Assembly (NCBI GenBank): GCA_903827265.1
Contig: CAIKHN010000024.1
Location: forward strand, 3,332-67,331
Reading direction: 5' to 3'
Source: Candidatus Uhrbacteria bacterium
GTDB taxonomy: Bacteria > Patescibacteriota > Patescibacteriia > UBA9934
DNA: 64,000 nucleotides
This document shows positions 5,032 to 55,151 of the stretch, piece after piece. The notes under the pieces are model-generated. The model had not been told where the DNA came from, ran no database searches, and saw only the letters and a program-made list of their open reading frames with translations. Each line of letters begins with the position of its first letter. Position 1 is the first letter of the stretch. The translations under genes and the position numbers were made by a program.

Positions 5032-5808
5032 TTTCTTCTCCGCAATCATTTCTTCAAACTCTGCGATCTTCTGATTATCTGGGTTCACTTCACGAAGGTG
5101 TTCGAGAGACTTCTTTGCCTCACTGATCTCCTCAATCTCGAGCGCAGCAGTAATGAAGAAATCGAGGTACTTTGGATTATTCGGGCTAATGGTTTTTGCT
5201 TTCTCGTAGAATCCGTATGCAGTCTTCATGTCGCCTTCTGCGGAGAAGACCTCTCCAAGCGCTGCAAGAACGCTTGCATCCTTTGGGGCAAGTTTTACAA
5301 GGAACTCAAGCGCCTCTTTTGCTTCGGCGTGTTGACCTTGCGACAAATACATTCGTCCGAGCGCTTCATAGGCCTGAACATTCTTTGGGTCATGCGAAAG
5401 TACCGCAACAAGCTCCTTCTCAGCGTCCTCGTATTTTCCAAGCACGATCGACTTCTTTGCTTCGTCGGTCATTCGGTGGAGTTCCCCAGCATCGATCTTT
5501 CCTGTTTTCTGCCGCTCGACATACTGACGTTCGAGCGCGGTAAGCTTTCCTGCAAGACGTCGGAACCATTCCTGGACAGACTTCACGATTGGCAAAACCG
5601 ATGTTTTCCAAACATTCTTTCCCTTCTCCTCAACCTGTCGCATCATGCGCTCTTCAAGAAGCGCATTCTTTGTTTCTCGTGTTCGCGCCTCTTTGCTCGA
5701 CATTGGATCGACAATAGAAAGTTGCGGAGCTTTCTGCTTCGCAATAACCACGATTGTTCCGAGCGAACCAAGAAATACTATCCAAAGCAATCCATCAAAG
5801 GCCGTCAT
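5029..5808 (-). CDS. TPR-repeat protein with N-terminal membrane anchor
   Basis: N-terminal hydrophobic helix followed by several 34-aa TPR-like repeats (AYEALGRMYLSQGQHAEAKEALEF...). Confidence 0.6.
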   Translation of the reverse strand: MTAFDGLLWIVFLGSLGTIVVIAKQKAPQLSIVDPMSSKEARTRETKNALLEERMMRQVEEKGKNVWKTSVLPIVKSVQEWFRRLAGKLTALERQYVERQKTGKIDAGELHRMTDEAKKSIVLGKYEDAEKELVAVLSHDPKNVQAYEALGRMYLSQGQHAEAKEALEFLVKLAPKDASVLAALGEVFSAEGDMKTAYGFYEKAKTISPNNPKYLDFFITAALEIEEISEAKKSLEHLREVNPDNQKIAEFEEMIAEKK

Positions 5809-6572
5809 ACGTTTTGTGCAATCATTACGTCACGCCCCGCATTCACAATTGCTTCAAATTCGTGAATCTTCACACTTGCCCCACCAACGAGTACGCCATC
5901 AATTCCTGGTTCACGCAAGAAGCTATACGCGTTTGCGCCGTCGACAGATCCGCCGTACAGAACCTGTACCGCAGCACCAACGCCAATCGTTCTCAGTGCT
6001 TCGCGAATGACGCCGTGCATTGCAACAGCGTCAGCTGGCGTCGCGCTCACACCAGTATCAATTGCCCAAATCGGCTCGTACGCCACAACCAACCGAGACG
6101 CCTTCGTTAACGTCACGCCGCGAAGTGCGGCGCCAAGCTGTTGTGCGACGAATTCCTCTGCCTTCCCTGCCACGCGCGACTCTTTCGATTCGCCAACACA
6201 CAGAATCGGCACTAACGACGTTTGCGCGATCAATTTCATTTTTGCATTTACCACCGCGTCAGACTCTCCGTTCATCGCTCGGCGCTCCGAGTGACCAATA
6301 ATCACGAATCCACAACCAGCGTCATCGAGCTGTGCAACAGAAACATCGCCAGTGAATGCGCCGAAGCGCTCGGTGCCCATCGTTTGCGCACCAAGAGCAA
6401 CGCGGGTTCGGACGAGTACTTTTCGAACTTCCGACAACGCGGTGAACGACGGACAAATCACGATTTCTGGCAGAACCTCATGCCCCATTACCGATCGCAA
6501 CACTCCGCGCGCGTGCGCGATGGATTCTCGAATGCCGAGATGCATTTTCCAGTTGCCGATAATGGTTTTCAT
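5805..6572 (-). CDS. tpiA: triosephosphate isomerase
   Basis: GNWKMH N-terminus, IIGHSERR, VAYEPIWAIDTG and GGSV motifs. Confidence 0.9.
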   Translation of the reverse strand: MKTIIGNWKMHLGIRESIAHARGVLRSVMGHEVLPEIVICPSFTALSEVRKVLVRTRVALGAQTMGTERFGAFTGDVSVAQLDDAGCGFVIIGHSERRAMNGESDAVVNAKMKLIAQTSLVPILCVGESKESRVAGKAEEFVAQQLGAALRGVTLTKASRLVVAYEPIWAIDTGVSATPADAVAMHGVIREALRTIGVGAAVQVLYGGSVDGANAYSFLREPGIDGVLVGGASVKIHEFEAIVNAGRDVMIAQNV

Positions 6573-20104: not shown

Positions 20105-20548
20105 TTATGAAATATTTCTTCGAAGTGCGTCCTTCTTTGTTGCCGTAATCGTGGGAGCGTTCGCGTAGACCGGACGAAGCATTGGCGTTGAGAGCACCGA
20201 TGTAAGGTCGATGAGTGCGATTCTGTCATCGGAACCGAACGGAAGTTCAACGCCGTACATTGGGATCGATCGCGTAAAAGCAAATGTGTTTGCCCACGTC
20301 AGTATTGTTCGAAGTGCAGTTGCTGATCCTGGACCAATGACGACCGCGAGCTCTGAGATTTGTTTCAAATCAATATGCTGTTCGCGAAACCACGCATCGA
20401 TCGTAAAGAGAAACTCTTCCGGTCGAACAGCAAATGTTTTCGGCAAAATCGCAAACGACGCGCGGTCATCGGCAACGACTCCCAACGTCAGCTTCGCAAT
20501 GTCGGATCCGTTCACGTACAGCATCATAGTTCTCCAAAGGTGTTCCAC
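20105..20548 (-). CDS. tsaB: TsaB-like (inactive Kae1/YeaZ homolog) short protein
   Basis: The segment ELAVVIGPGSATALRTILTWANTFAFTRSIPMYGV parallels the YeaZ GPGSFTGLRIG…PLIGV block. The protein is shorter than canonical TsaB. Confidence 0.45.
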   Translation of the reverse strand: MEHLWRTMMLYVNGSDIAKLTLGVVADDRASFAILPKTFAVRPEEFLFTIDAWFREQHIDLKQISELAVVIGPGSATALRTILTWANTFAFTRSIPMYGVELPFGSDDRIALIDLTSVLSTPMLRPVYANAPTITATKKDALRRNIS

Positions 20549-21183
20549 AGTATGACACGTTTTGCTCCGAGAATTGTTGCAAGGAATCGATCGCCAACGT
20601 CTTTGCGGTACAAAAACTCTTCTTTCGGCATGGCAGTAAAGTTCACTTCTCGCGCAATATCGCGCTCAAACTCACGAATCGCTGCAGCAAGATGCTCTGG
20701 ATCGATCGTTCCAACAATCAGCACATCTGTAGGTACATTTACCGCATCCACAAAACGACCAGTAAGCAAAATAAGATCAATATCGCCTTTCTCTTTCAGT
20801 ACGCGAACAATTTCGCGATTCATAAGAACCGCCGCCTTACGCATAACGCCGCGCAAATCCTCAAACAACGGAAATTCTGCATTCGCGCGATAGAACTTTT
20901 TCTTCTCCCCTTTTGTTTCTGGTTCGTCATCTTTTGCTTCCGTCGGAATGATCTTTCCTTCAACTTCAAGAACAATTCCAACATCAACAAGATTTTTCAG
21001 CTCTCGTCGAACCGCGTTTAATTGCGCATCGATACGTCGTGTCAGTTCTCTGACGTAAAATGCTCGATCCGAATTTTCCAAAAACAACGTGAGTAATCGC
21101 GCTCGAGTTCGTGAACCAAAGAGTTGTTCAATACGGAACTCTCCAGGTTTTACGAGCACTTCCGGTTCGTCGGTGTTATCCAT
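20524..21183 (-). CDS. hypothetical protein with predicted winged-helix region
   Basis: Long ORF with good coding texture; no confident family. Overlaps the TsaB-like gene by 25 nt. Confidence 0.35.
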   Translation of the reverse strand: MDNTDEPEVLVKPGEFRIEQLFGSRTRARLLTLFLENSDRAFYVRELTRRIDAQLNAVRRELKNLVDVGIVLEVEGKIIPTEAKDDEPETKGEKKKFYRANAEFPLFEDLRGVMRKAAVLMNREIVRVLKEKGDIDLILLTGRFVDAVNVPTDVLIVGTIDPEHLAAAIREFERDIAREVNFTAMPKEEFLYRKDVGDRFLATILGAKRVILWNTFGEL

Positions 21184-23941: not shown

Positions 23942-24325
23942 TTACTTCAAGGTTACGGTTGCACCTGCTGCTTCGAGCTTTGCCTTCATGTCGTCGGCTT
24001 CTGCCTTTGAAGCACCTTCCTTCACTGCCTTTGGAGCTGCATCGACGATGTCCTTTGCTTCCTTGAGGCCAAGACCGGTCACTTCACGAACAGCCTTGAT
24101 GACGTTGATCTTGCTGTCGCCAGCTGCAGTGAGTTCAACAGTGAATGTTGACTTCTCTTCTGCTGCTGCGCCTGCTGCTGCTGGAGCTGCTGCCATCATC
24201 ATTGCTGGAGCTGCTGCAGAGACACCGAAATTCTCTTCCAACACCTTCACCAACTCTGAAAGATCGAGCACGGACATCTTCTCAATTTCGCTCACAATTG
24301 ACTGGAACTTTGCTGGGATTTCCAT
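23942..24325 (-). CDS. rplL: 50S ribosomal protein L7/L12
   Basis: N-terminal dimerisation helix, Ala/Pro-rich hinge and C-terminal domain ([24 protein letters not shown]). Confidence 0.9.
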
Positions 24326-24347: not shown

Positions 24348-24875
24348 TTACGCTGTTTTCTTTTCCTTCACTGCACCAAGCACATTGACCAAACCACGGA
24401 GGTTGCCAGCGAGAACGTTGACGAATCCGGTTGGCGTTGCGTTGAGTGTACGAACGAGCATTCCAAGGAGTTGCTCCTTGCTTGGCAAGTCGGCGACACG
24501 CTTCACATCGGCCGTACCAATGAGACAGTTTTCCAAGACACCGGCAACCAAGGAACCGATTTCTTTGTCTTTCAAGAAATCTTTGAGCACCTTTGCTGCG
24601 GTCACTTCGTCGCCATAACTCACGGCAGTGAGAATAGAACCCTGTAACGCGTCGGGCACCACACCTTCCACACCTGCTTCCTTTGCTGCAAGCGTCAGTA
24701 ACGTTTTCTTCGAGATGAAGATATCAACGTTCTGTGCTCGAGCCTTGGCGCGCAATGCGTCGGCATGGTTCATGGTAAATCCGGACACGGAGACAAAGGC
24801 TGCGCCTTTCATCCGCTTAAACTGATCCGCGATTCCCGCCACGATGTCGCGTTTTTCTGAACGAGACTTTGGCAT
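24348..24875 (-). CDS. rplJ: 50S ribosomal protein L10
   Basis: 175-aa L10-like sequence immediately upstream of rplL. Confidence 0.9.
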
Positions 24876-25030
24876 AGTGAACCGTTAAATGTAAAACGAC
24901 CCCAGAAGGGCCGCAGAAATTCCTTCGAAGCCCCAAAGGAGCAAAGAAGGAGAGATTCTCGACAGGACTTACACCGAGGCTATATCGGCAACCTGTTGTC
25001 TGCGGATCTCGAGGACGGGAAAAGAGTATC
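24876..25030 (-). promoter_or_regulatory. rplJ 5' leader (possible L10 autoregulatory leader)
   Basis: Roughly 150-200 nt of non-coding sequence upstream of rplJ on its strand. Assignment is by position and established knowledge of L10(L12)4 autoregulation only; no structure was verified. Confidence 0.25.
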
Positions 25031-25035
25031 ACACG

Positions 25036-25064
25036 TTGACGATAAGTCAAATATTCGCTAAGGT
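25036..25064 (+). promoter_or_regulatory. promoter/operator module copy 1 (TTGAC-N5-GTCAA palindrome overlapping the -35)
   Basis: ttgacgataagtcaaatattcgctaaggt sits about 45 nt upstream of the 25110 gene and is a near-duplicate of the module at 25946. Confidence 0.4.
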
Positions 25065-25109
25065 TCGCGCCGACAGGAATTCACTTCCCTCCTGTTTCAA
25101 AGGATACTC

Positions 25110-25889
25110 GTGACCCAGACTCCCCCAAGCATGACGCCGGAAGCTGTCCTCGAGCTCTTCAAGTTGGCGATCGCGGAAATGAAGACCTACTACAAGGCGA
25201 TGCAGGCGAAGAACTACCGCCTCGTGGACTACGACTGCTTCACCGCCAACGCCGAGGCGCTCGACACGCTGTTTCAGTCGACACCTTTCATTCAGTTCCC
25301 GGTGCAAGCGGTACCCGCTGACCTAAGGTTGAGGTACCGCGCCGTGGATTGGCCGATCTGGTTCGCCTACAAGGCGGTCGAGGCCATCGGCTACGCGGCA
25401 CGGACGAACGAACGCGAGGGCACCACTTTCGCGGACGCGGTCCAGCCGCTTTGGAAGATCATCGAATGGGAGAAGGCGAAACCGATTCTCGCATCTCAAG
25501 ATCCAGATCAAGAATGGAGCCTGCGCCTCCAAGATCGATTCGCCATAGAGCTCCAACGCAACGGATTCTACGGCGAGTGGATTGTGGAGCTTTCGCTTCG
25601 CGAGAAACCGCTCCTGTGGATGAAGGCTCTGGAAACGGGCCCGCGGGAATTCGAGTTCCGTCTCGACGATACGCTCGAGCTCGTCGATGAAAAGGACTGC
25701 GTCTTCGTCGACTCCACGAGCACGTGGGTCCTCGTTTCGGAAGAGCGTGCGCATCGATGGGAACGAATCGGCAGGCTGCAAGCGGAGCGCGCAAGGGCCG
25801 AGGCCAACTTTCGTTCGCTCGACGCCGAAATCAATGGAGAACTCGGCGTGATCCGCTACCAGGACACGCGGGGCAAGAACGCCACGTAG
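25110..25889 (+). CDS. hypothetical protein, first gene of a G+C-rich islet
   Basis: 259-aa ORF with GTG start and AGGA RBS. Third codon positions are strongly G/C-biased, unlike flanking genes. Confidence 0.5.
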   Translation: MTQTPPSMTPEAVLELFKLAIAEMKTYYKAMQAKNYRLVDYDCFTANAEALDTLFQSTPFIQFPVQAVPADLRLRYRAVDWPIWFAYKAVEAIGYAARTNEREGTTFADAVQPLWKIIEWEKAKPILASQDPDQEWSLRLQDRFAIELQRNGFYGEWIVELSLREKPLLWMKALETGPREFEFRLDDTLELVDEKDCVFVDSTSTWVLVSEERAHRWERIGRLQAERARAEANFRSLDAEINGELGVIRYQDTRGKNAT

Positions 25890-25902
25890 GCACAGAACAC
25901 GA

Positions 25903-25946
25903 CGCCGCGACCACCCTCACAGGTGGCCGCGGCGGTTCTTTTTTAT
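25903..25946 (+). terminator. intrinsic terminator
   Basis: 13-bp stem cgccgcgaccacc/ggtggccgcggcg with one mismatch, followed by ttctttttt. Confidence 0.65.
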
Positions 25947-25975
25947 TGACGAAAAGTCAAAATTTTGCTATATTT
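25946..25975 (+). promoter_or_regulatory. promoter/operator module copy 2 (TTGACG, 17 nt, TATATT; TTGAC-N5-GTCAA palindrome)
   Basis: ttgacgaaaagtcaaaattttgctatattt: -35 TTGACG, 17-nt spacer, -10 TATATT. The downstream gene has GGAGG and a GTG start. Confidence 0.5.
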
Positions 25976-26024
25976 ATTGGTCACTGCAACGAAAGATCAA
26001 TTCACATTCTGTCTTGGAGGCACC

Positions 26025-26672
26025 GTGTCCCACAAGAACAAACCCCTGGACCTCAACACCCGAAACCTGTTCCCAACATCGCTCCTTGAGGCCCAACGCC
26101 TCATCGGCGAACTCATCGGCGAGAATGCTCGGCTCAAAGATCTCGCCTACACCGACGAGCTCACGCATCTCGTGAACCGTCGTCCGCTGATGGCCCAGAT
26201 GGACCGCGTCTTCCACGGCCGAAACGGCGCAGAGGAACGACGTCGAGCCCGCCGTGGCACCGAGAGCATTGCTGTCATGGCGATCGATCTCGAAGGGTTC
26301 AAGCAGGTCAACGACCGGTCGAGTCACGCGGAAGGCGATCGTGCGCTCATCCACACCGCGCAAGTCCTTCGCAGGGCAATCCGCGAAGACGACATCGCGG
26401 CAAGGGTGGGCGGCGACGAGTTCCACGTCAGCCTCTACAACACCACGCTCGAAGGCGCGAACCTCGCGATCGAGCGGATTCTCAAGGGAGTCCGGTCGTT
26501 CGAAAGCCTCGTCGGAAAGCACGTCCTCGACGTGCGGATCGGGTGCGTGTTCTGGGAGCGGGAGATGGGCGATGCACAATACGCCAAGCTCTTCGCTATC
26601 GCCGAACACAACGAGCGGACGCTCAAGACCGAAAAGCGCGTCGGGTCGCTCGTGACCCTGTTCAAACCGTGA
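26025..26672 (+). CDS. GGDEF-domain protein (diguanylate cyclase), stand-alone
   Basis: TDELTHLVNRRPL entry to the GGDEF fold, AIDLEGFKQVND, the RVGGDEF active-site motif and a DRALIH block. GTG start at 26025 with GGAGG RBS; the ORF-track start at 25965 is rejected. Confidence 0.8.
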   Translation: MSHKNKPLDLNTRNLFPTSLLEAQRLIGELIGENARLKDLAYTDELTHLVNRRPLMAQMDRVFHGRNGAEERRRARRGTESIAVMAIDLEGFKQVNDRSSHAEGDRALIHTAQVLRRAIREDDIAARVGGDEFHVSLYNTTLEGANLAIERILKGVRSFESLVGKHVLDVRIGCVFWEREMGDAQYAKLFAIAEHNERTLKTEKRVGSLVTLFKP

Positions 26673-26696
26673 CATCAGCGTTACGCACGCCCACGG

Positions 26697-26729
26697 CCGG
26701 CCCTTCGCAAGAAGGGTCGGTTTTCTTTG
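26697..26729 (+). terminator. intrinsic terminator
   Basis: Stem ccggcccttc/gaagggtcgg (9 of 10 bp) with loop gcaa, followed by ttttcttt. Confidence 0.55.
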
Positions 26730-26755
26730 ACAAAACACCAATTTTCTGGTATAGT
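26727..26755 (+). promoter_or_regulatory. near-consensus sigma70 promoter (TTGACA, 17 nt, TATAGT)
   Basis: TTGACA at 26727-26732, 17-nt spacer, TATAGT at 26750-26755. Confidence 0.55.
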
Positions 26756-26851
26756 ATTGCGTCAGAGAGTCCTATCCTCTCTGCCGCAACACTCCCCCCG
26801 GCCATCAGGCCATCCCACCAAGTACCGCAGAAGCCCACGGAGCCATACACC

Positions 26852-27433
26852 ATGGCCAAAAAGCAGTTCGAAGTCCCGGAATACGAAAACGCATGCACCG
26901 TAAACCCACGGCGGAGCCGTCGGCCGAAGACCGACACTGAACCTGGCGTCAAAAACATCCTGTTTCCCTGGTTTACCACGGGACAGGAACTGACCCTCGT
27001 CGGCTGCGACAACGGTGAACTGGAGATCGGTGGCGATAACGACACGGAGCTCTACGACTTCAGCTGGAAGGACAGCGAAGACGTCATCCAAGGTGAACAC
27101 CTGCTGGAGATGTATGAGTTCGTTTCCGACAGCGCTGACGACATCGACAACGAGCTGGCGCCTGCGCCGCTCGAACTCGACGTCCTCGACCGGTTCTACG
27201 CCGGTACCGCCGACACCTTCGACAGCATCGTTGCCATGAGCCGGATCGCCGGCCTGGACATCGGCGATGTCGTCGATCAGCTGCTCGCGAAGGGCGTCGA
27301 CCTCCTCCGGCCGATGGTCGAGGATGAGGAAGACGACAGCGACCCGATCACCGCCGTGGATTTCCTGACCAACCGCGAGCTCCGCGGCGTCAGCAGCCTC
27401 CCCGGCCGGCGATTCATCTACGCCAACGCGTGA
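26852..27433 (+). CDS. highly acidic hypothetical protein (193 aa)
   Basis: ATG at 26852, in frame with the longer track ORF 26543..27433. The translation is very rich in D/E (…VEDEEDDSDPITAVDF…). No family recognised. Confidence 0.5.
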   Translation: MAKKQFEVPEYENACTVNPRRSRRPKTDTEPGVKNILFPWFTTGQELTLVGCDNGELEIGGDNDTELYDFSWKDSEDVIQGEHLLEMYEFVSDSADDIDNELAPAPLELDVLDRFYAGTADTFDSIVAMSRIAGLDIGDVVDQLLAKGVDLLRPMVEDEEDDSDPITAVDFLTNRELRGVSSLPGRRFIYANA

Positions 27434-27559
27434 CAACGAGGGCGGTGCAGACATCATGCACCGCCCAGCCCCCAGAGTTTCCGAGTACACTCGGAGATTG
27501 CGGGGGCGAACAAGTACTTGAACGCCAACACCAACCCTTTCCGAGCAATCGGAGGAAAA

Positions 27560-27739
27560 ATGGATCAAAGAGACTACGATAAGATGGTGCTCCGGGGGAT
27601 GACCGAGGAAACTGCGCGAGACATCGCGCTTCACGATGAAGCCTGGAGGCGCCATCGAGAGACGAGGGATCGGCGACAGCCGAGCACCGAGCAAGATCTC
27701 GCACGAGCGCTCGGCTTCGATTCGAACGGAACGTACTAA
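27560..27739 (+). CDS. small hypothetical protein (59 aa)
   Basis: ATG preceded by GGAGGaaaa, with G+C-rich codon usage like the rest of the islet. Confidence 0.3.
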   Translation: MDQRDYDKMVLRGMTEETARDIALHDEAWRRHRETRDRRQPSTEQDLARALGFDSNGTY

Positions 27740-27821
27740 GCGCACGAGGAACGAGAGACGTCATCTCGTTCCGCCCGCAGAGTTCATGATCGGATTCGAT
27801 CGTGGGTTGTGCGAGAAAAGC

Positions 27822-27855
27822 AAAACCGCCACCGAGAATCTCGGTGGCGGTTTTG
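27822..27855. terminator. bidirectional intrinsic terminator
   Basis: aaaaccgccaccga-gaatc-tcggtggcggtttt: 10-bp GC-rich stem flanked by A and T runs, lying between convergent genes. Confidence 0.7.
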
Positions 27856-27859
27856 TATA

Positions 27860-30199
27860 TTATGAGAGAATGTCGAGAATGTCTGTTACTGACGCTTCAA
27901 CGGCGTCCGGATCAAAGTCACTCGTGCTGTTAATATCGTCTCCAAAGTGATAGTTGCTGAAGAACGCATCACTAATGTCGTCGATCTGTTTGTTCCATGT
28001 GCTCCCCCAAATACTCTTTGCAACATCTTCGCTTGCAACCGCACGAAGCTCTCCGTCGGTTCCCACGGCGTACACCGTATTGACCGTCAGGAATTTTACC
28101 ATGCGTGTTCCAGGATGATACGTCACGTTTTTTCCAAGAGTCACTGACGCCATGAATTCGTCCGTAACGACAATCACGTCGTCGAAATTCTCGTACCACG
28201 TGAAGAACACTTTTTCATTTGGGAACGCATGACGCTTTCCGTCGTAGTAATACACGGCATGACATGGGTCGCTCACGTCGGCAACACTTCCACATGCCAT
28301 TTTAATTAGCGTGTTCACCGCTGCTTCAGGAGCAGCATCACGCTCCTCGGTTGTTGTCGTTGCTGCGCTAATGGTGATTGTTACCGATGAACCGCGTGTT
28401 GCGTTTCCCGAAGAGTCAACACAATATGCATTTGCAATCGCGACTCCAGCAGTTGTAAATGTTTGTGTCAGCGAAGCGACGCCGCTTCCAATCGTCATGG
28501 CGCCTTTTGAAACACCGTCCACGTATAACGTACATGACGAAACCGCCACGTTATCTGAAACGTTCGCGTGCAAACTTACCGGAACACCAACGGTAGCATT
28601 TGTTGGAATGAGTCCGGTGACCGTCGGCATCATTACGTCAGTTGTTGTTGTCGACGCGGCACTTACCACAATAGTTACCGTTGAACCTGTTCCCGTATTT
28701 CCTGCAGCATCAACACACGTCACGTATGCAGAATAACTTCCAGCCGATGTAAATGTTCCAGACACTGACGCGGTGCCAGCACTTAACGTCATTGACGACG
28801 TTTTGCTGTCGACGTGCTCTGTGCAGCTCACAACACCAACTGCGTCACTATATGTTGCGGTAAACGTCTTTGCGACGTTCACCGTTGCGGTTAGTGGCGT
28901 AAGTGCGCCAACCGTTGGCGCAGTGGTGTCAGCAGATGACGTTGCGCTCACCGTAAATGAAACCGATGTTTCATCACCCTCATTTGATGCCGGATCAATC
29001 GCGCGGATTGTTGCCGTGTGGCTTCCGACAGAAAGCGCCGTTGCCCAGCTGTATGAATTCACCGCACCAATATCAGTCCACGTTCCACTTGCATCCATTT
29101 CCATTTCGTATGACGCAACATATGTTTCATCGTCCGTCGCATCGTTCCATTTAAACTCTGGCGTCGCGTCTGTTGTCGATGTCTCGCCGCTTGAAAGCGC
29201 AAAGTCACTCACTGCGTTTGGTCCGTACGCGTCATACACGGAGATTGTTCCAGATTCACCCACGGCAACACGTTTTCCAATAGCGAATTGGGTTACGCCG
29301 TTCATAATCTTTGATGCGCCCATCCACTCCGCGGTCCATACGGTTCCGTTGCTTGAAGAAGTTACCACTGCGCCAAGATTTCCCGAGACTAAACACAACG
29401 TCGCCGACGAACAGCTCACGTCTTGAACGGTCTCTGCCGCATCAAAATCCGAAAGAGTGACAGAGCTAAAGGTGCTTCCGTTTGTTGTTTTTACCAGAGT
29501 ACGATTCTCTCCGCCAAAATATGCGACTGTTGCAGAAAAAGCATCAACAGCATGCAGCGTCTCTGACGTTCCCGTCGTTAATGCTGTCCACGATGTTCCA
29601 CCATTTGTGGTCTTGTATGCCGCACCATACTTTCCAACGATGTACACCACCGTTGAGGAGTACGCGTCGAGGCCATTCACATCGAAGCTCCCAATGCCGG
29701 TATTGATACGCGTCCACGTCGTCCCACTGTCGACTGTTTTATAAATTGATCCGTCTTGTCCACCAACAAACATGACCGATGCAGAAACCGCGGTCGCACC
29801 ATACAAATCCTCAGTCGTAACGCCGGTAATACTTGTCCACGTCGCACCACCGTCGGCGCTCACGATAATTGTTCCGGCTTTTCCCACGGCAATCGCGACG
29901 GACGTGCCGTACATATCGACGTGATTCAGCGTCTCTGTTGTTCCAGATGTTGCGGTATTCCACGTTTTCCCGTCGGCCGCATAGAGCACTGTTCCGTTAT
30001 CACCAACCGCGACACACGCCACAGCATGTCCGCAGTCGACATCACGAAGCTCTGTGGTTGTTGGAGAATCGTAAAGCACCCACGCCGCAGCATGGACATT
30101 CACTGCCCACCCTATTGCGGACACCGCACACAATGCAGTCGCACCCAAACGTTTCAAACCGAAAAAGCGTTTAGCAATCATATATTTTGAGTATATCAT
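27860..30199 (-). CDS. large cell-surface protein with Ycf48/BNR-like beta-propeller repeats followed by Ig-like domains
   Basis: Signal peptide, then repeated DGGATW / DSGTTW / NGGTSW Asp-box-like motifs, then Thr/Ser-rich beta domains with conserved Cys pairs (…VSCTEHVD…, …SSCTLYVD…, …AYCVDSSG…). Confidence 0.65.
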   Translation of the reverse strand: MIYSKYMIAKRFFGLKRLGATALCAVSAIGWAVNVHAAAWVLYDSPTTTELRDVDCGHAVACVAVGDNGTVLYAADGKTWNTATSGTTETLNHVDMYGTSVAIAVGKAGTIIVSADGGATWTSITGVTTEDLYGATAVSASVMFVGGQDGSIYKTVDSGTTWTRINTGIGSFDVNGLDAYSSTVVYIVGKYGAAYKTTNGGTSWTALTTGTSETLHAVDAFSATVAYFGGENRTLVKTTNGSTFSSVTLSDFDAAETVQDVSCSSATLCLVSGNLGAVVTSSSNGTVWTAEWMGASKIMNGVTQFAIGKRVAVGESGTISVYDAYGPNAVSDFALSSGETSTTDATPEFKWNDATDDETYVASYEMEMDASGTWTDIGAVNSYSWATALSVGSHTATIRAIDPASNEGDETSVSFTVSATSSADTTAPTVGALTPLTATVNVAKTFTATYSDAVGVVSCTEHVDSKTSSMTLSAGTASVSGTFTSAGSYSAYVTCVDAAGNTGTGSTVTIVVSAASTTTTDVMMPTVTGLIPTNATVGVPVSLHANVSDNVAVSSCTLYVDGVSKGAMTIGSGVASLTQTFTTAGVAIANAYCVDSSGNATRGSSVTITISAATTTTEERDAAPEAAVNTLIKMACGSVADVSDPCHAVYYYDGKRHAFPNEKVFFTWYENFDDVIVVTDEFMASVTLGKNVTYHPGTRMVKFLTVNTVYAVGTDGELRAVASEDVAKSIWGSTWNKQIDDISDAFFSNYHFGDDINSTSDFDPDAVEASVTDILDILS

Positions 30200-32073: not shown

Positions 32074-32091
32074 AAAGATTACATTGACATC

Positions 32092-32226
32092 GAGAGCTGG
32101 TGACTCGGGTACATGTTTCTTCACTCGCCGCAACGATCGTCACGCCCGACGTCTCGCTCTGCTCGACTGTGGCTGGACGACTGTGCGGTTCGTTGCGAAA
32201 CATGCACCCTCATCACTGGCGCTCTC
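32092..32226. repeat. palindromic intergenic repeat, family A copy 1 (REPIN/MITE-like, about 135 nt)
   Basis: Arms gagagc-tgg-gtga-ctc-gggtacatgtttc … gaaacatgcaccc-tca-tcac-tggc-gctctc. It is homologous in inverted orientation to the copies at 34648 and 39652. Confidence 0.75.
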
Positions 32227-33095: not shown

Positions 33096-33221
33096 GAGAA
33101 CGCTCTAATTTTAGGCTAGTTTCGATGAACGTCGAGCAAAGTTTCCGAGGTGTACTTCTCGGTACATCGAGGAAATTTGCGATGATGTGAGTCGAAAATA
33201 GACAAAATTAGAGCGTTCTCT
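33096..33221. repeat. palindromic repeat, family B copy 1 (126 nt, perfect 17-bp terminal inverted repeats)
   Basis: Left end gagaacgctctaatttt and right end aaaattagagcgttctc are exact reverse complements. The interior is homologous to 52733-52850. Confidence 0.7.
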
Positions 33222-34596: not shown

Positions 34597-34647
34597 AAAA
34601 ACAGTGTACAGGACTATGACGCGAAGGTGAATGCACACCAGGTATCG

Positions 34648-34781
34648 GGAGCGCCAGTGACAAGGGTGCATGTTTCGCAACGAGCAATGCACCCATCCAG
34701 CCGCAGTTGAGCAAAGCGAAACGTTGCGGCGTGATGGTGTTCACGCACAGTGAAGAAACATGTACCCGAGTCACAAGCTCC
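34648..34781. repeat. family A repeat copy 2
   Basis: Nested stems ggagc/gctcc, gtgac/gtcac and gggtgcatgtttc/gaaacatgtaccc (with G·U), plus an inner stem gccgcag…ttgcggc. Confidence 0.75.
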
Positions 34782-34822
34782 GATAAAACAAAAGGCGAGG
34801 CACAGTGGCCTCGCCTATGTTT

Positions 34823-52709: not shown

Positions 52710-52732
52710 ATGAATATATCGAACACAGAGCA

Positions 52733-52850
52733 TTTGAGACCAGTTTCGATGAAGGTCGAGGAAATCTCGCGAGGCGTACTTCTCGGTACGTTGAGCGAAT
52801 TTCCGATGACCTGAATCGAAAATGGGCCAAATGAATGTGTTCGTCCTTTT
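52733..52850. repeat. family B repeat copy 2 (degenerate; lacks the left terminal repeat)
   Basis: cagtttcgatgaaggtcgaggaaatctcgcgaggcgtacttctcggtacgttgagcgaatttccgatgacctgaatcgaaaatgggc aligns with the interior of copy 1. It lies 24-140 nt upstream of the rpsB start. Confidence 0.55.
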
Positions 52851-53230: not shown

Positions 53231-53446
53231 CTATCCATCAACGCGGGAAATCGCCTCGAATACTTCAATGGAATCGGCGAGTACACTATTTAACCCGAAG
53301 CGGCGTCCACCGCGGTTCGCGACCGAAGTCCCCAGTGGTGCCGATTGAAGGGACCGGTACTCGGGTGAACCGAGCAACTCCTCGTCGGTATACCGACGGT
53401 CATTGCGGAAGGGGACGTCGGAGACTTCAGGATCGTTCGACGACAT
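53231..53446 (-). CDS. hypothetical small protein (G+C-rich islet)
   Basis: 71-aa ORF downstream of the receiver gene with GC3-biased codons. Confidence 0.25.
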   Translation of the reverse strand: MSSNDPEVSDVPFRNDRRYTDEELLGSPEYRSLQSAPLGTSVANRGGRRFGLNSVLADSIEVFEAISRVDG

Positions 53447-53582
53447 GGGTCACCATGGTGAGAGAGGCGGTGTTCTGAAGCGAAGGATTTCGCCGGAACT
53501 GTGAAATATTCTCAGATATTCGCCAAAAAGGCAAGACCGCCGAGTGTCGTACTCGGCGGCCCCGTTGCCTGGACACTCTTTT

Positions 53583-54029
53583 TCACAGCTCCCCCGTCCG
53601 CGACTGTGGCTTCGGTGGAGGCTGATGCTCACGCTCGAGCTGATCGAGGAGATCGCTGAGCCAGCGTACCGTCCGCGGCATAGCAACGACGAATCCTCCG
53701 GAATCGCTGACGAGCTGACGCAGCCAGTCCCGGTCCGTGTACATGAGGTACACGAACGGGACATTGACCACGTTCATGTGAATCCCTCGTTGCTTGTGGA
53801 ACTCCGCACCCAGTAGTCCATGACACCGATGCTCGACCGGACCAGTGCGATCGTCCGTCACGACAAGCGCGAGCTGATCCCCGAGCTTGGCGAACTGCGT
53901 AATTGCGTCTTCGAAGTCGCCCGTCGGTCGCACGTCCCAGCCCACAGCTAGAAGCGCTTCCGCGAAAAGCAGTCGCGTTGCCTGGTCTTCGATGTAGAGC
54001 AAGACTCCTTTCCGATTCCGAGCAGCCAT
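53583..54029 (-). CDS. stand-alone CheY-like receiver-domain protein
   Basis: Start ATG 54029 with a GGAGGTG RBS. VLLYIEDQ…LVVTDDR fits the receiver acidic pocket and phospho-acceptor Asp pattern. No output domain. Confidence 0.5.
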   Translation of the reverse strand: MAARNRKGVLLYIEDQATRLLFAEALLAVGWDVRPTGDFEDAITQFAKLGDQLALVVTDDRTGPVEHRCHGLLGAEFHKQRGIHMNVVNVPFVYLMYTDRDWLRQLVSDSGGFVVAMPRTVRWLSDLLDQLEREHQPPPKPQSRTGEL

Positions 54030-54079
54030 GTTCGCACCTCCAAAAATACTGTTACACGACAAAAGCGCTAATGCAAGCC

Positions 54080-55078
54080 TCAGCGAATGAACATGGCGTC
54101 GCCAAAGGAGAAGAAACGATATCGACAATCGACAGCCTCTTGGTACGCAGCAAGAACGTTTTCGCGGCCGGCAAAGGCGGAAACAAGCATGAGGAGCGTC
54201 GATTTTGGGAGATGGAAATTCGTGACGAGACCATCAACGACTTTGAAATCGAATCCCGGCGTGATGAACATGTTTATTTCGCCGGAGTAGGATTTAAGCT
54301 CGCCGATCGTCGCAAAAACGCCCTCAAGAACGCGAACGGTCGTTGTTCCAACGGCAATCACGCGTCGGCCTTCGGACTTTGCTGATCGAATTCGCTGTGC
54401 GGTCGGCTCATCGATCTCCACAAACTCGGCGTGCATCACGTGGTCCTCGATGTGATCGGTCTGTACTGGACGAAACGTGCCGATGCCAACATGAAGTGTG
54501 ACTTCTTCGATCTGCACGCCTTTTGCTCGTGCTCGATCGATGAGTTCGGGAGTGAAGTGAAGCCCGGCGGTTGGCGCAGCAACAGATCCGGTCGACTTCG
54601 CATAAACGGTTTGGTAGCGATCGGGATCGGCGAGCTCAGTGGTGACGTACGGTGGAGTTGGTACCGATCCTGCAGATTCGCAGAACGCGAACATCTCAAT
54701 CGCCGTCATCGAAGTTTTTAGCGTCACGATCCCGTCTTCCGTCTTTGAGACGACCTCGAGATCGCCGATTCTGAAACCGATCCCCGCTTTTCGTCCTGGC
54801 TTCACCAGAGCGTCGATCTCCCCATCGCGAACCTTGAGAACAAACACTTCAAAGCCGTCGATTTGAAGGCGGGCTTTAAATACCTTCGAAACATTAAACA
54901 CAAGAACATCGCCCGCGTTCAGCTCGTCGAGAATTTCGGAGAACCGATCGCGATGTTGAATTTCGCCAGTCGTTCGATCGAGCACAAGGAGTCTCGAAGA
55001 ATCCCGCGGTTCGATAGGAACCTGGGCGATCAGCTCCTCTGGAAGATTGTATGAAAAATCGGTGACGGGCGTTAGCAT
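54080..55078 (-). CDS. queA: S-adenosylmethionine:tRNA ribosyltransferase-isomerase
   Basis: QueA blocks (…LPEELIAQVP…RDSSRLLVLDR…, …TVGTTTVRVLE…). Start taken at MLTPVTD (55078). Confidence 0.85.
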   Translation of the reverse strand: MLTPVTDFSYNLPEELIAQVPIEPRDSSRLLVLDRTTGEIQHRDRFSEILDELNAGDVLVFNVSKVFKARLQIDGFEVFVLKVRDGEIDALVKPGRKAGIGFRIGDLEVVSKTEDGIVTLKTSMTAIEMFAFCESAGSVPTPPYVTTELADPDRYQTVYAKSTGSVAAPTAGLHFTPELIDRARAKGVQIEEVTLHVGIGTFRPVQTDHIEDHVMHAEFVEIDEPTAQRIRSAKSEGRRVIAVGTTTVRVLEGVFATIGELKSYSGEINMFITPGFDFKVVDGLVTNFHLPKSTLLMLVSAFAGRENVLAAYQEAVDCRYRFFSFGDAMFIR

Positions 55079-55151
55079 AATGGGCGAATTATAGCGAAAT
55101 ATTTGTTTTTCAACAAGAATACTGTTACCATCGCACTGCACAGGAGTCCAC

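Follow-up and report, generated by a model that had tools for sequence, protein, structure and literature searches.

The 64-kb window analyzed here, a stretch of contig CAIKHN010000024.1 from Candidatus Uhrbacteria bacterium, contains two similar modules, denoted P1 and P2, which are located upstream of the first gene (g1) and of the gene for a GGDEF domain protein (g2), respectively, in a small gene islet adjacent to rplJ, the gene for ribosomal protein L10. Both modules carry, from the -35 hexamer on, the perfect 5+5 inverted repeat TTGAC-N5-GTCAA (25036-25050 in P1 and 25946-25960 in P2). In our interpretation, P1 and P2 are ordinary sigma70-type promoters of one local style, and the palindrome in P1 results from two divergent, interdigitating promoters, those of g1 and rplJ; the right arm of the palindrome in P2 would have no promoter partner and would not be under selection; it would have arisen by coincidence or have remained from an exchange of sequence with P1. 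We estimate the probability of this explanation, taken as a whole, at roughly 0.72. The elements concerned are the following.

25036-25064, plus strand: P1, putative promoter of g1, TTGACGATAAGTCAAATATTCGCTAAGGT; -35 TTGACG at 25036-25041 (5/6 to the consensus), 17-nucleotide (nt) spacer, -10 TAAGGT at 25059-25064
25946-25974, plus strand: P2, putative promoter of the GGDEF gene, TTGACGAAAAGTCAAAATTTTGCTATATT; TTGACG (5/6), 17-nt spacer ending in TGC (extended -10), TATATT; 10/12 to the consensus
25050->25023, minus strand: putative promoter of rplJ (L10 operon), TTGACT (5/6) TATCGTCAACGTGTGA TACTCT; 16-nt spacer, TG-extended -10 at 25028-25023
24876-25016, minus strand: 5' leader of rplJ, approximately 140 nt, with blocks conserved across relatives
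24348-24875, minus strand: rplJ, ribosomal protein L10 (Pfam Ribosomal_L10, E 6.4e-17)
23942-24325, minus strand: rplL, following rplJ (Pfam Ribosomal_L12, E 2.1e-30)

A preliminary description of this locus had located the palindromic strings correctly, except that the second one was extended to 25975, one base beyond its true end at 25974. It also described the modules as alike at most positions, promoter-like, placed ahead of the first islet gene and the GGDEF gene, and overlapped at the -35 by the inverted repeat, and all of this holds: P1 and P2 are identical at 22 of 29 positions, both show the sigma70 register with a 17-nt spacer, and the repeat overlaps the -35 in each. More generally, P1, P2, the rplJ promoter and the promoter of the third islet gene (P3, see below) combine a -35 close to TTGACA, a spacer of 16-18 nt and a TAnnnT -10, and their positions are kept upstream of the same genes in related lineages (the window and 9 of 10 lineages for rplJ, 4 lineages for P2, and 4 lineages for the style of P3).

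Predicted divergent promoters of g1 and rplJ

The region upstream of rplJ was compared with that of nine lineages, L167, L293, L169, L294, L295, L170, L297, L301 and L300 (L10 proteins 74-97% identical), to which L086, closely related to the islet, was added. The conserved leader motif GAGATCCGCAGAC served as the anchor of the alignment. The window and 9 of these 10 lineages (L086, L167, L293, L169, L294, L295, L170, L297 and L301) have TTGAC(N), a non-conserved spacer of 16-17 nt and TAnnnT in a fixed register to this motif. The remaining lineage, L300, has no rplJ -35; it also has no islet, and a co-directional gene precedes its rplJ. This pattern of conservation, which appears to be the signature of a real rplJ promoter, identifies the right arm of the P1 palindrome as the rplJ -35: TTGACT at 25050-25045 on the minus strand is AGTCAA at 25045-25050 on the plus strand. 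The -10 of rplJ and the bases that follow it (TTTCCCGTCCTCGAGATCCGCAGAC) resemble those of the rpmE promoter at 56098-56126 (TTGACA, 17 nt, TACTCTTTTGCC; in the shorter form, TTGACA-17-TACTCTTTT). Transcription of rplJ would start at about 25016. The conserved block of the leader begins 6 nt past the -10 in most lineages, and the leader is 93-97% identical to that of L086, as against 53-93% for the coding sequence of g1. A search of the leader against Rfam identified no family (the best match, purD with E 0.14, was taken as chance). A conserved insertion of approximately 130 nt is present in the rplJ leaders of L167 (about 5700-5870) and L297 (about 5700-5880), whose L10 proteins are 97% and 77% identical to that of the window, and is absent from the window; possible identities are a structured RNA module and a small mobile element, and the L167 copy, the one compared with Rfam, gave no match.

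The interdigitated arrangement is shared by the window, L086 (TTGACGGAAAGTCAAATAATCGCTAAGGT) and the group of L297, L298 and L299 (TTGACGGAAAGTCAAATTTTGGCTAATAT; L10 77% identical), the last having TAATAT as the -10 of P1. The 15-nt core is TTGAC-GATAA-GTCAA in the window and TTGAC-GGAAA-GTCAA in both L086 and the L297 group, so that the 12 of the 15 palindrome bases that fall inside the two -35 hexamers are invariant in the three lineages and the 3 bases between the hexamers vary (ATA vs. GAA). In L167, L293, L169, L170 and L294, the recognizable islet-side promoter and the rplJ promoter are arranged back to back, and the palindrome is missing. P1 (25036-25064, plus strand) and the rplJ promoter (25050-25023, minus strand) overlap with the centers of their -35 elements 9 bp apart: the g1 -35 (TTGACG, plus strand) would lie within the rplJ spacer and the rplJ -35 (TTGACT, minus strand) within the g1 spacer, 3 bp away. 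With the start site of g1 predicted at about 25071, the two starts would be approximately 55 bp apart. Given these distances, joint occupancy of the core should be impossible, and P1 and the rplJ promoter probably accommodate one RNA polymerase at a time and compete, as far as can be judged from the geometry.

The preliminary description had suggested instead that TTGAC-N5-GTCAA is an operator shared by the two modules. Under this explanation, a dimeric repressor would block the -35 region and in this way co-regulate g1 and the GGDEF gene, and possibly rplJ as well. The inverted repeat is suited to a dimeric DNA-binding protein, its two perfect copies lie over -35 elements within 1 kb of each other, exact matches to TTGACGAWAAGTCAAA or TTGACNNNNNGTCAA occur at P1 and P2 and nowhere else in the window, and both arms of P1 are kept in L086 and in the L297 group. 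However, the conservation of the P1 arms is fully covered by the two -35 hexamers, outside of which three bases vary, whereas the right arm of P2 is kept in none of its three orthologs although the surrounding spacer is (see below); thus, the half-sites are not conserved beyond the needs of the promoters. The palindrome is also missing from P3, from P4 (a promoter of the same style elsewhere in the window) and from the first islet promoters recognized in L167, L293, L170 and L294. The motif does not recur in the 64 kb, where relaxed searches returned counts near chance (4 sites vs. 1.68 expected with up to 3 mismatches, and 5 vs. 3.05 expected with up to 1 mismatch), and a weight matrix derived from seven promoters recovered its own members only and was uninformative on further sites. 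In viral contigs, the 16-mer gave 84 IMG/VR matches, one per contig, in unrelated contexts and with no relatives of the islet, which is approximately the rate for a random 16-mer as estimated from an assumed collection size. Finally, no helix-turn-helix (HTH) or other DNA-binding Pfam domain was detected in g1, g3 or g4 at E values up to 10, and there was no PADLOC match. An operator of this kind is therefore highly improbable in our assessment, and the palindromes of P1 and P2 do not appear to require a dedicated repressor. An HTH_20 protein is encoded at 20524-21183, 4 kb away.

Two other candidates were considered and rejected. The palindrome as an RNA hairpin would have a weak stem (-4.5 kcal/mol) and lies upstream of both predicted start sites. 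A second quasi-palindrome, GCGAA-N2-TTCGC, located at 25057-25068, 6 nt upstream of the rplJ -35 and overlapping the -10 of P1, was assessed as an alternative operator and occurs in the window at chance frequency (11 matches vs. 7.4 expected). Perfect copies are present in L167 and L293, and copies with a single mismatch in the window, L086 and L169; the arms are kept, the center is variable, and the sequence could be an upstream (UP)-like element or a binding site.

Promoter style and the right arm of P2

Three further predicted promoters of the window, which the preliminary description had overlooked, resemble P1 and P2.

26727-26755, plus strand: P3, putative promoter of g3, TTGACAAAACACCAATTTTCTGGTATAGT; TTGACA (6/6), 17 nt, TG, TATAGT; 11/12 to the consensus
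55569-55597, plus strand: P4, TTGCGG AGAATTGATTTTTTTGC TATATT, 17-nt spacer ending in TGC; before the membrane open reading frame (ORF) 55625-56011
55116->55088, minus strand: P6, TTGTTG AAAAACAAATATTTCGC TATAAT, P1-like spacer; 8 nt before the ATG of queA

The common style would consist of a -35 TTGACG, a 17-nt spacer that is A-rich and then T-rich, and a -10. A repeat search of the window grouped P1, P2 and P4 in one family (D5), and P2, P3 and P4 all combine a -35 TTGAC(G/A) or TTGCGG with a TATAnT -10 and a 17-nt spacer that ends in TGC or TGG, in the manner of sigma70 promoters of the consensus-like, extended -10 (TGn) type, the spacers of which are A/T-rich. Nothing essential sets the modules of the window apart from that class; P1 has no TG and a weaker -10. 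None of P3, P4 and P6 contains the palindrome, and P3, the spacer of which is kept in L297, L170 and L294, has ACCAA where P1 and P2 have GTCAA. The start codon of queA, 8 nt past the P6 -10 (55077-55116, minus strand), suggests a leaderless or nearly leaderless mRNA.

The likeness between P1 and P2 was calibrated with the relaxed pattern TTGACGRWAANNNNAAWWWTYGCTA, which fits P1, P1', P2, P2' and the L167 ortholog and leaves the four central spacer bases free. A search of metagenomes with this pattern found at least 120 loci, with no new relatives of the islet among the matches listed; the 76 distinct unrelated cores among the matches listed served as the control set, to which the following counts refer. 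TAnnnT is present in the -10 register in 54 of the 76, and 39% of the control pairs are identical at 22 or more of 29 positions, that is, they are as alike as P1 and P2, so that the overall likeness of the two modules is usual for this promoter style. What P1 and P2 specifically have in common is a single feature, GTCA as the four free spacer bases, which forms the core of the right palindrome arm and occurs in 0 of the 76 controls.

The orthologs of P2 show how this arm has evolved.

Window P2: TTGACGAAAAGTCAAAATTTTGCTATATT, the reference 29-mer
L086 GGDEF promoter: TTGACGAAAAGTCGAAATTTTGCTATATT, 28/29 identical to P2
L167 GGDEF promoter: TTGACGAAAACCCCAAATTTTGCTATACT, 25/29 identical to P2
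L293 GGDEF promoter: TTGACGAAACCCTCAGATTTTGATATACT, lower identity to P2

The differences cluster in the right arm, positions 11-15 of which read GTCAA in the window, GTCGA in L086, CCCCA in L167 and CCTCA in L293. The L167 ortholog of P2 would drive the gene for a GGDEF protein that shares only 45% identity with g2. Between the window and L086, g1 has diverged to a synonymous divergence (dS) of 0.355, yet the block formed by the terminator of g1 and P2 is 92% identical (promoter and terminator blocks as a whole, 92-97%), and the sole difference within the 29-mer lies in the arm. The P2 promoter thus seems to be constrained as a whole, with the right arm as its least constrained part, whereas an operator would predict the reverse. 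On the minus strand at P2, TTGACT is followed by TTTCGTCAATAAAAAAGAACCGC and no hexamer resembling a -10 is found at 16-18 nt, which rules out a divergent promoter at this site.

The presence of GTCA in both modules and in none of the controls is the principal argument for a relationship between P1 and P2 by descent, either through duplication of a module including both -35 boxes upon insertion of the g1 cassette (for example, by a Campbell-type event) or through a conversion tract, TTGACGAnAAGTCAAA, across the 910 bp that separate them; the right arm of P2 would then be a functionless, decaying relic. The L086 counterpart, P2', is already one arm base short (GTCGA), as expected of decay. In L167 and L293, which have no g1, the GGDEF promoter is directly beside the rplJ promoter, a layout that places the gain or loss of g1 precisely between the two modules, and a second gene with high G+C content at third codon positions (GC3), 55625-56011, is also found between direct repeats of a regulatory module, namely identical 39-nt terminators (D13). 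Against descent, P1 and P2 have unrelated flanks that do not align, and apart from GTCA only 3 of 10 other free or partly constrained positions agree. Moreover, from GTCAA on, P1 (GTCAAATATTCGCTAAGGTTCGCGCC) matches the L167 block that precedes the rplJ -35 (GTCAAATCTTTGCGAACATTCGCGAT) at 19 of 26 positions, and P2 is the ortholog of the L167 and L293 GGDEF promoters a few bases further on, so that the two modules have separate orthologs; no single ancestral module was found in the relatives. Because the 3' half of P1 is orthologous to rplJ-upstream DNA in relatives without g1, P1 did not arise by simple copying of P2. The duplicated promoter cassette proposed in the preliminary description is accordingly a weak alternative, and common descent of the modules seems to us unlikely overall. 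From these comparisons, the g1 cassette (leader, gene and terminator) would stand between two pre-existing elements, with P1 built from the rplJ promoter region. The string AATTCAC, common to the g1 and g2 leaders, was also considered and dismissed; it is altered or absent in the L086 leaders and is probably due to chance.

Several considerations weigh against our preferred explanation, that of two ordinary promoters with a palindrome produced by interdigitation at P1. The -10 of P1, TAAGGT, is weak (3/6 to the consensus). A factor that binds TTGAC half-sites would leave the same conservation at P1 as two -35 hexamers. GTCA is expected in about 1 of 256 promoters, which makes pure coincidence at P2 somewhat unlikely, and P1 and P2 may be linked historically, by gene conversion or duplication, or the arm may have a function specific to the lineage. 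Further sites were sought in the 64-kb window, which is a part of a scaffold of approximately 450 kb, and promoter activity, start sites and mutual exclusion are all deduced from the sequence of an uncultivated organism.

The islet and other features of the window

The G+C content of the window is about 50%, rising to 57-60% in 25000-27860, where the islet lies between rplJ-rplL (minus strand) and the gene for a 779-aa BNR/Ig protein (minus strand). The islet consists of four plus-strand genes, of which g1-g3 have GC3 values of 0.70-0.76, vs. approximately 0.50 in host genes.

25110-25889, plus strand: g1, 259-aa ORFan, GC3 0.76; alternative ATG at 25131
25903-25945, plus strand: intrinsic terminator of g1, stem 25903-25934, U run abutting P2; -24.9 kcal/mol, z -4.5
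26025-26672, plus strand: g2, predicted stand-alone diguanylate cyclase, 215 aa, Pfam GGDEF (E 1.8e-26), GC3 0.75
26695-26726, plus strand: intrinsic terminator of g2, abutting P3; -21.5 kcal/mol, z -3.9
26852-27433, plus strand: g3, 193-aa acidic ORFan, GC3 0.70
27560-27739, plus strand: g4, 59-aa ORF
27821-27855: bidirectional terminator after g4, closing the islet

The g2 protein has an intact GGDEF motif, RxxD five residues upstream and a predicted N-terminal coiled coil. For g1, a single homolog (P0001, 71% identity) was found among 5.8 billion proteins, and no Pfam, PADLOC or PHROG family was recognized; its dN/dS ratio (nonsynonymous to synonymous divergence) against L086 is 0.54, and the AlphaFold model, built from a two-sequence alignment, was unusable (predicted local distance difference test, pLDDT, 40). 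The protein search returned no homolog of g3, and no family matched it. Among the islet proteins, PADLOC and PHROGs detected only GGDEF-like phage families. In the public annotation of ENA ERZ18647255 scaffold_1 (L001, equivalent to window positions 14348-34874), ORFs were called on the wrong strand of the islet (L001 7419-9553), including one antisense to the GGDEF gene, and because of such calls protein databases do not contain g1 and g2. The scarcity of homologs of g1 and g3 is probably due in part to the same cause, so that the family looks rarer than it is.

A GC3-rich islet (ORFs 0.7-0.9) between rplJ and the BNR/Ig gene is also present in L167, L169, L170, L294 and L297 (L10 77-100% identical). 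The islet genes diverge fast: the GGDEF proteins are 45% identical where L10 is 97% identical, g1 is 26% identical to its L297 homolog, and some genes are unrecognizable. The promoter and terminator modules of the islets are 86-97% identical where they can be aligned. The host belongs to a Patescibacteria lineage, and its L10 protein is 61-69% identical to proteins named Candidatus Uhrbacteria; among GTDB representatives searched with L10 there was no close relative, the best matches being Minisyncoccales metagenome-assembled genomes at 36-40% identity.

Elsewhere in the window, two small GC3-rich membrane ORFs, 55152-55481 (GC3 0.83) and 55625-56011 (GC3 0.73; promoter P4), have identical 39-nt terminators downstream (55508-55546 and 56036-74, respectively), another instance of an accessory gene that lies between direct repeats of a regulatory module. 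Isolated GC3-rich ORFs (0.62-0.75) at 61973-62308 and 53231-54128, both on the minus strand, look like members of the same accessory class, and the former has a promoter-like site of its own (62389->62361: TTGAAG, 17 nt, TACTGT). Dispersed repeat families of approximately 110-135 nt, 77-89% identical and in some cases inverted, are found at 34644-34784, 39650-39784 and 32089-32224, and also at 33108-33218 and 52732-52842. The sole tRNA of the window, at 41696-41768 (minus strand), was assigned by ARAGORN to tRNA-Asp with the anticodon ATC and scores a modest 46 bits in Rfam; inspection by eye shows a mismatch in the anticodon stem and a loop of apparently 8 nt (CTTATCAT), suggestive of either an unusual tRNA or a miscall.

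Relation to known promoter arrangements

Divergent bacterial promoters are classically described as back-to-back, overlapping or face-to-face, with bioA/bioBFCD and Tn10 tetA/tetR as examples of the overlapping class, and in the textbook cases of overlap the operator of a known repressor spans the shared region. The pair formed by P1 and the rplJ promoter appears to belong to this known class in that the two promoters likewise share a short piece of DNA on opposite strands. It differs from the textbook cases in that the symmetry would come from the promoter elements themselves, with no regulator known or needed; the overlap consists of two -35 elements 3 bp apart, each in the spacer of the other promoter, and promoter activity is a prediction. 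With palindromic repressor operators that cover a -35, P1 and P2 share the 5+5 repeat and its 5-bp gap, but they fail the conservation tests that an operator should pass. A different geometry has been reported for bidirectional promoters that share a symmetrical -10, with start sites 18 bp apart (Warman et al., 2021, as cited in the torS/torT study PMC13644379); relative to the arrangement as summarized in that citing study, P1 and the rplJ promoter have separate -10 elements, adjacent -35 elements and predicted starts approximately 55 bp apart.

The interdigitated -35 pair might further be a functional switch that couples the L10/L12 operon to the first gene of the islet through polymerase exclusion, a suggestion that we consider tentative and rather doubtful. 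Should P1 and the rplJ promoter indeed compete, expression of an accessory gene would be tied inversely to the transcription of ribosomal protein genes in the Uhrbacteria-like lineage that carries the islet, where the well-conserved promoter and terminator modules might anchor the exchange of gene cassettes.

To our knowledge, promoters of the candidate phyla radiation have hardly been studied, and the locus allows the rplJ promoter and its leader to be compared across 11 lineages, of which L300 is without the -35. It also presents a promoter style that has remained nearly unchanged while the genes driven by it diverged until their proteins were 45% identical or no longer recognizable. Promoter geometry, with TTGAC on both strands, can place a neat palindrome over a -35, and orthologous promoters need to be compared before any repressor is proposed.

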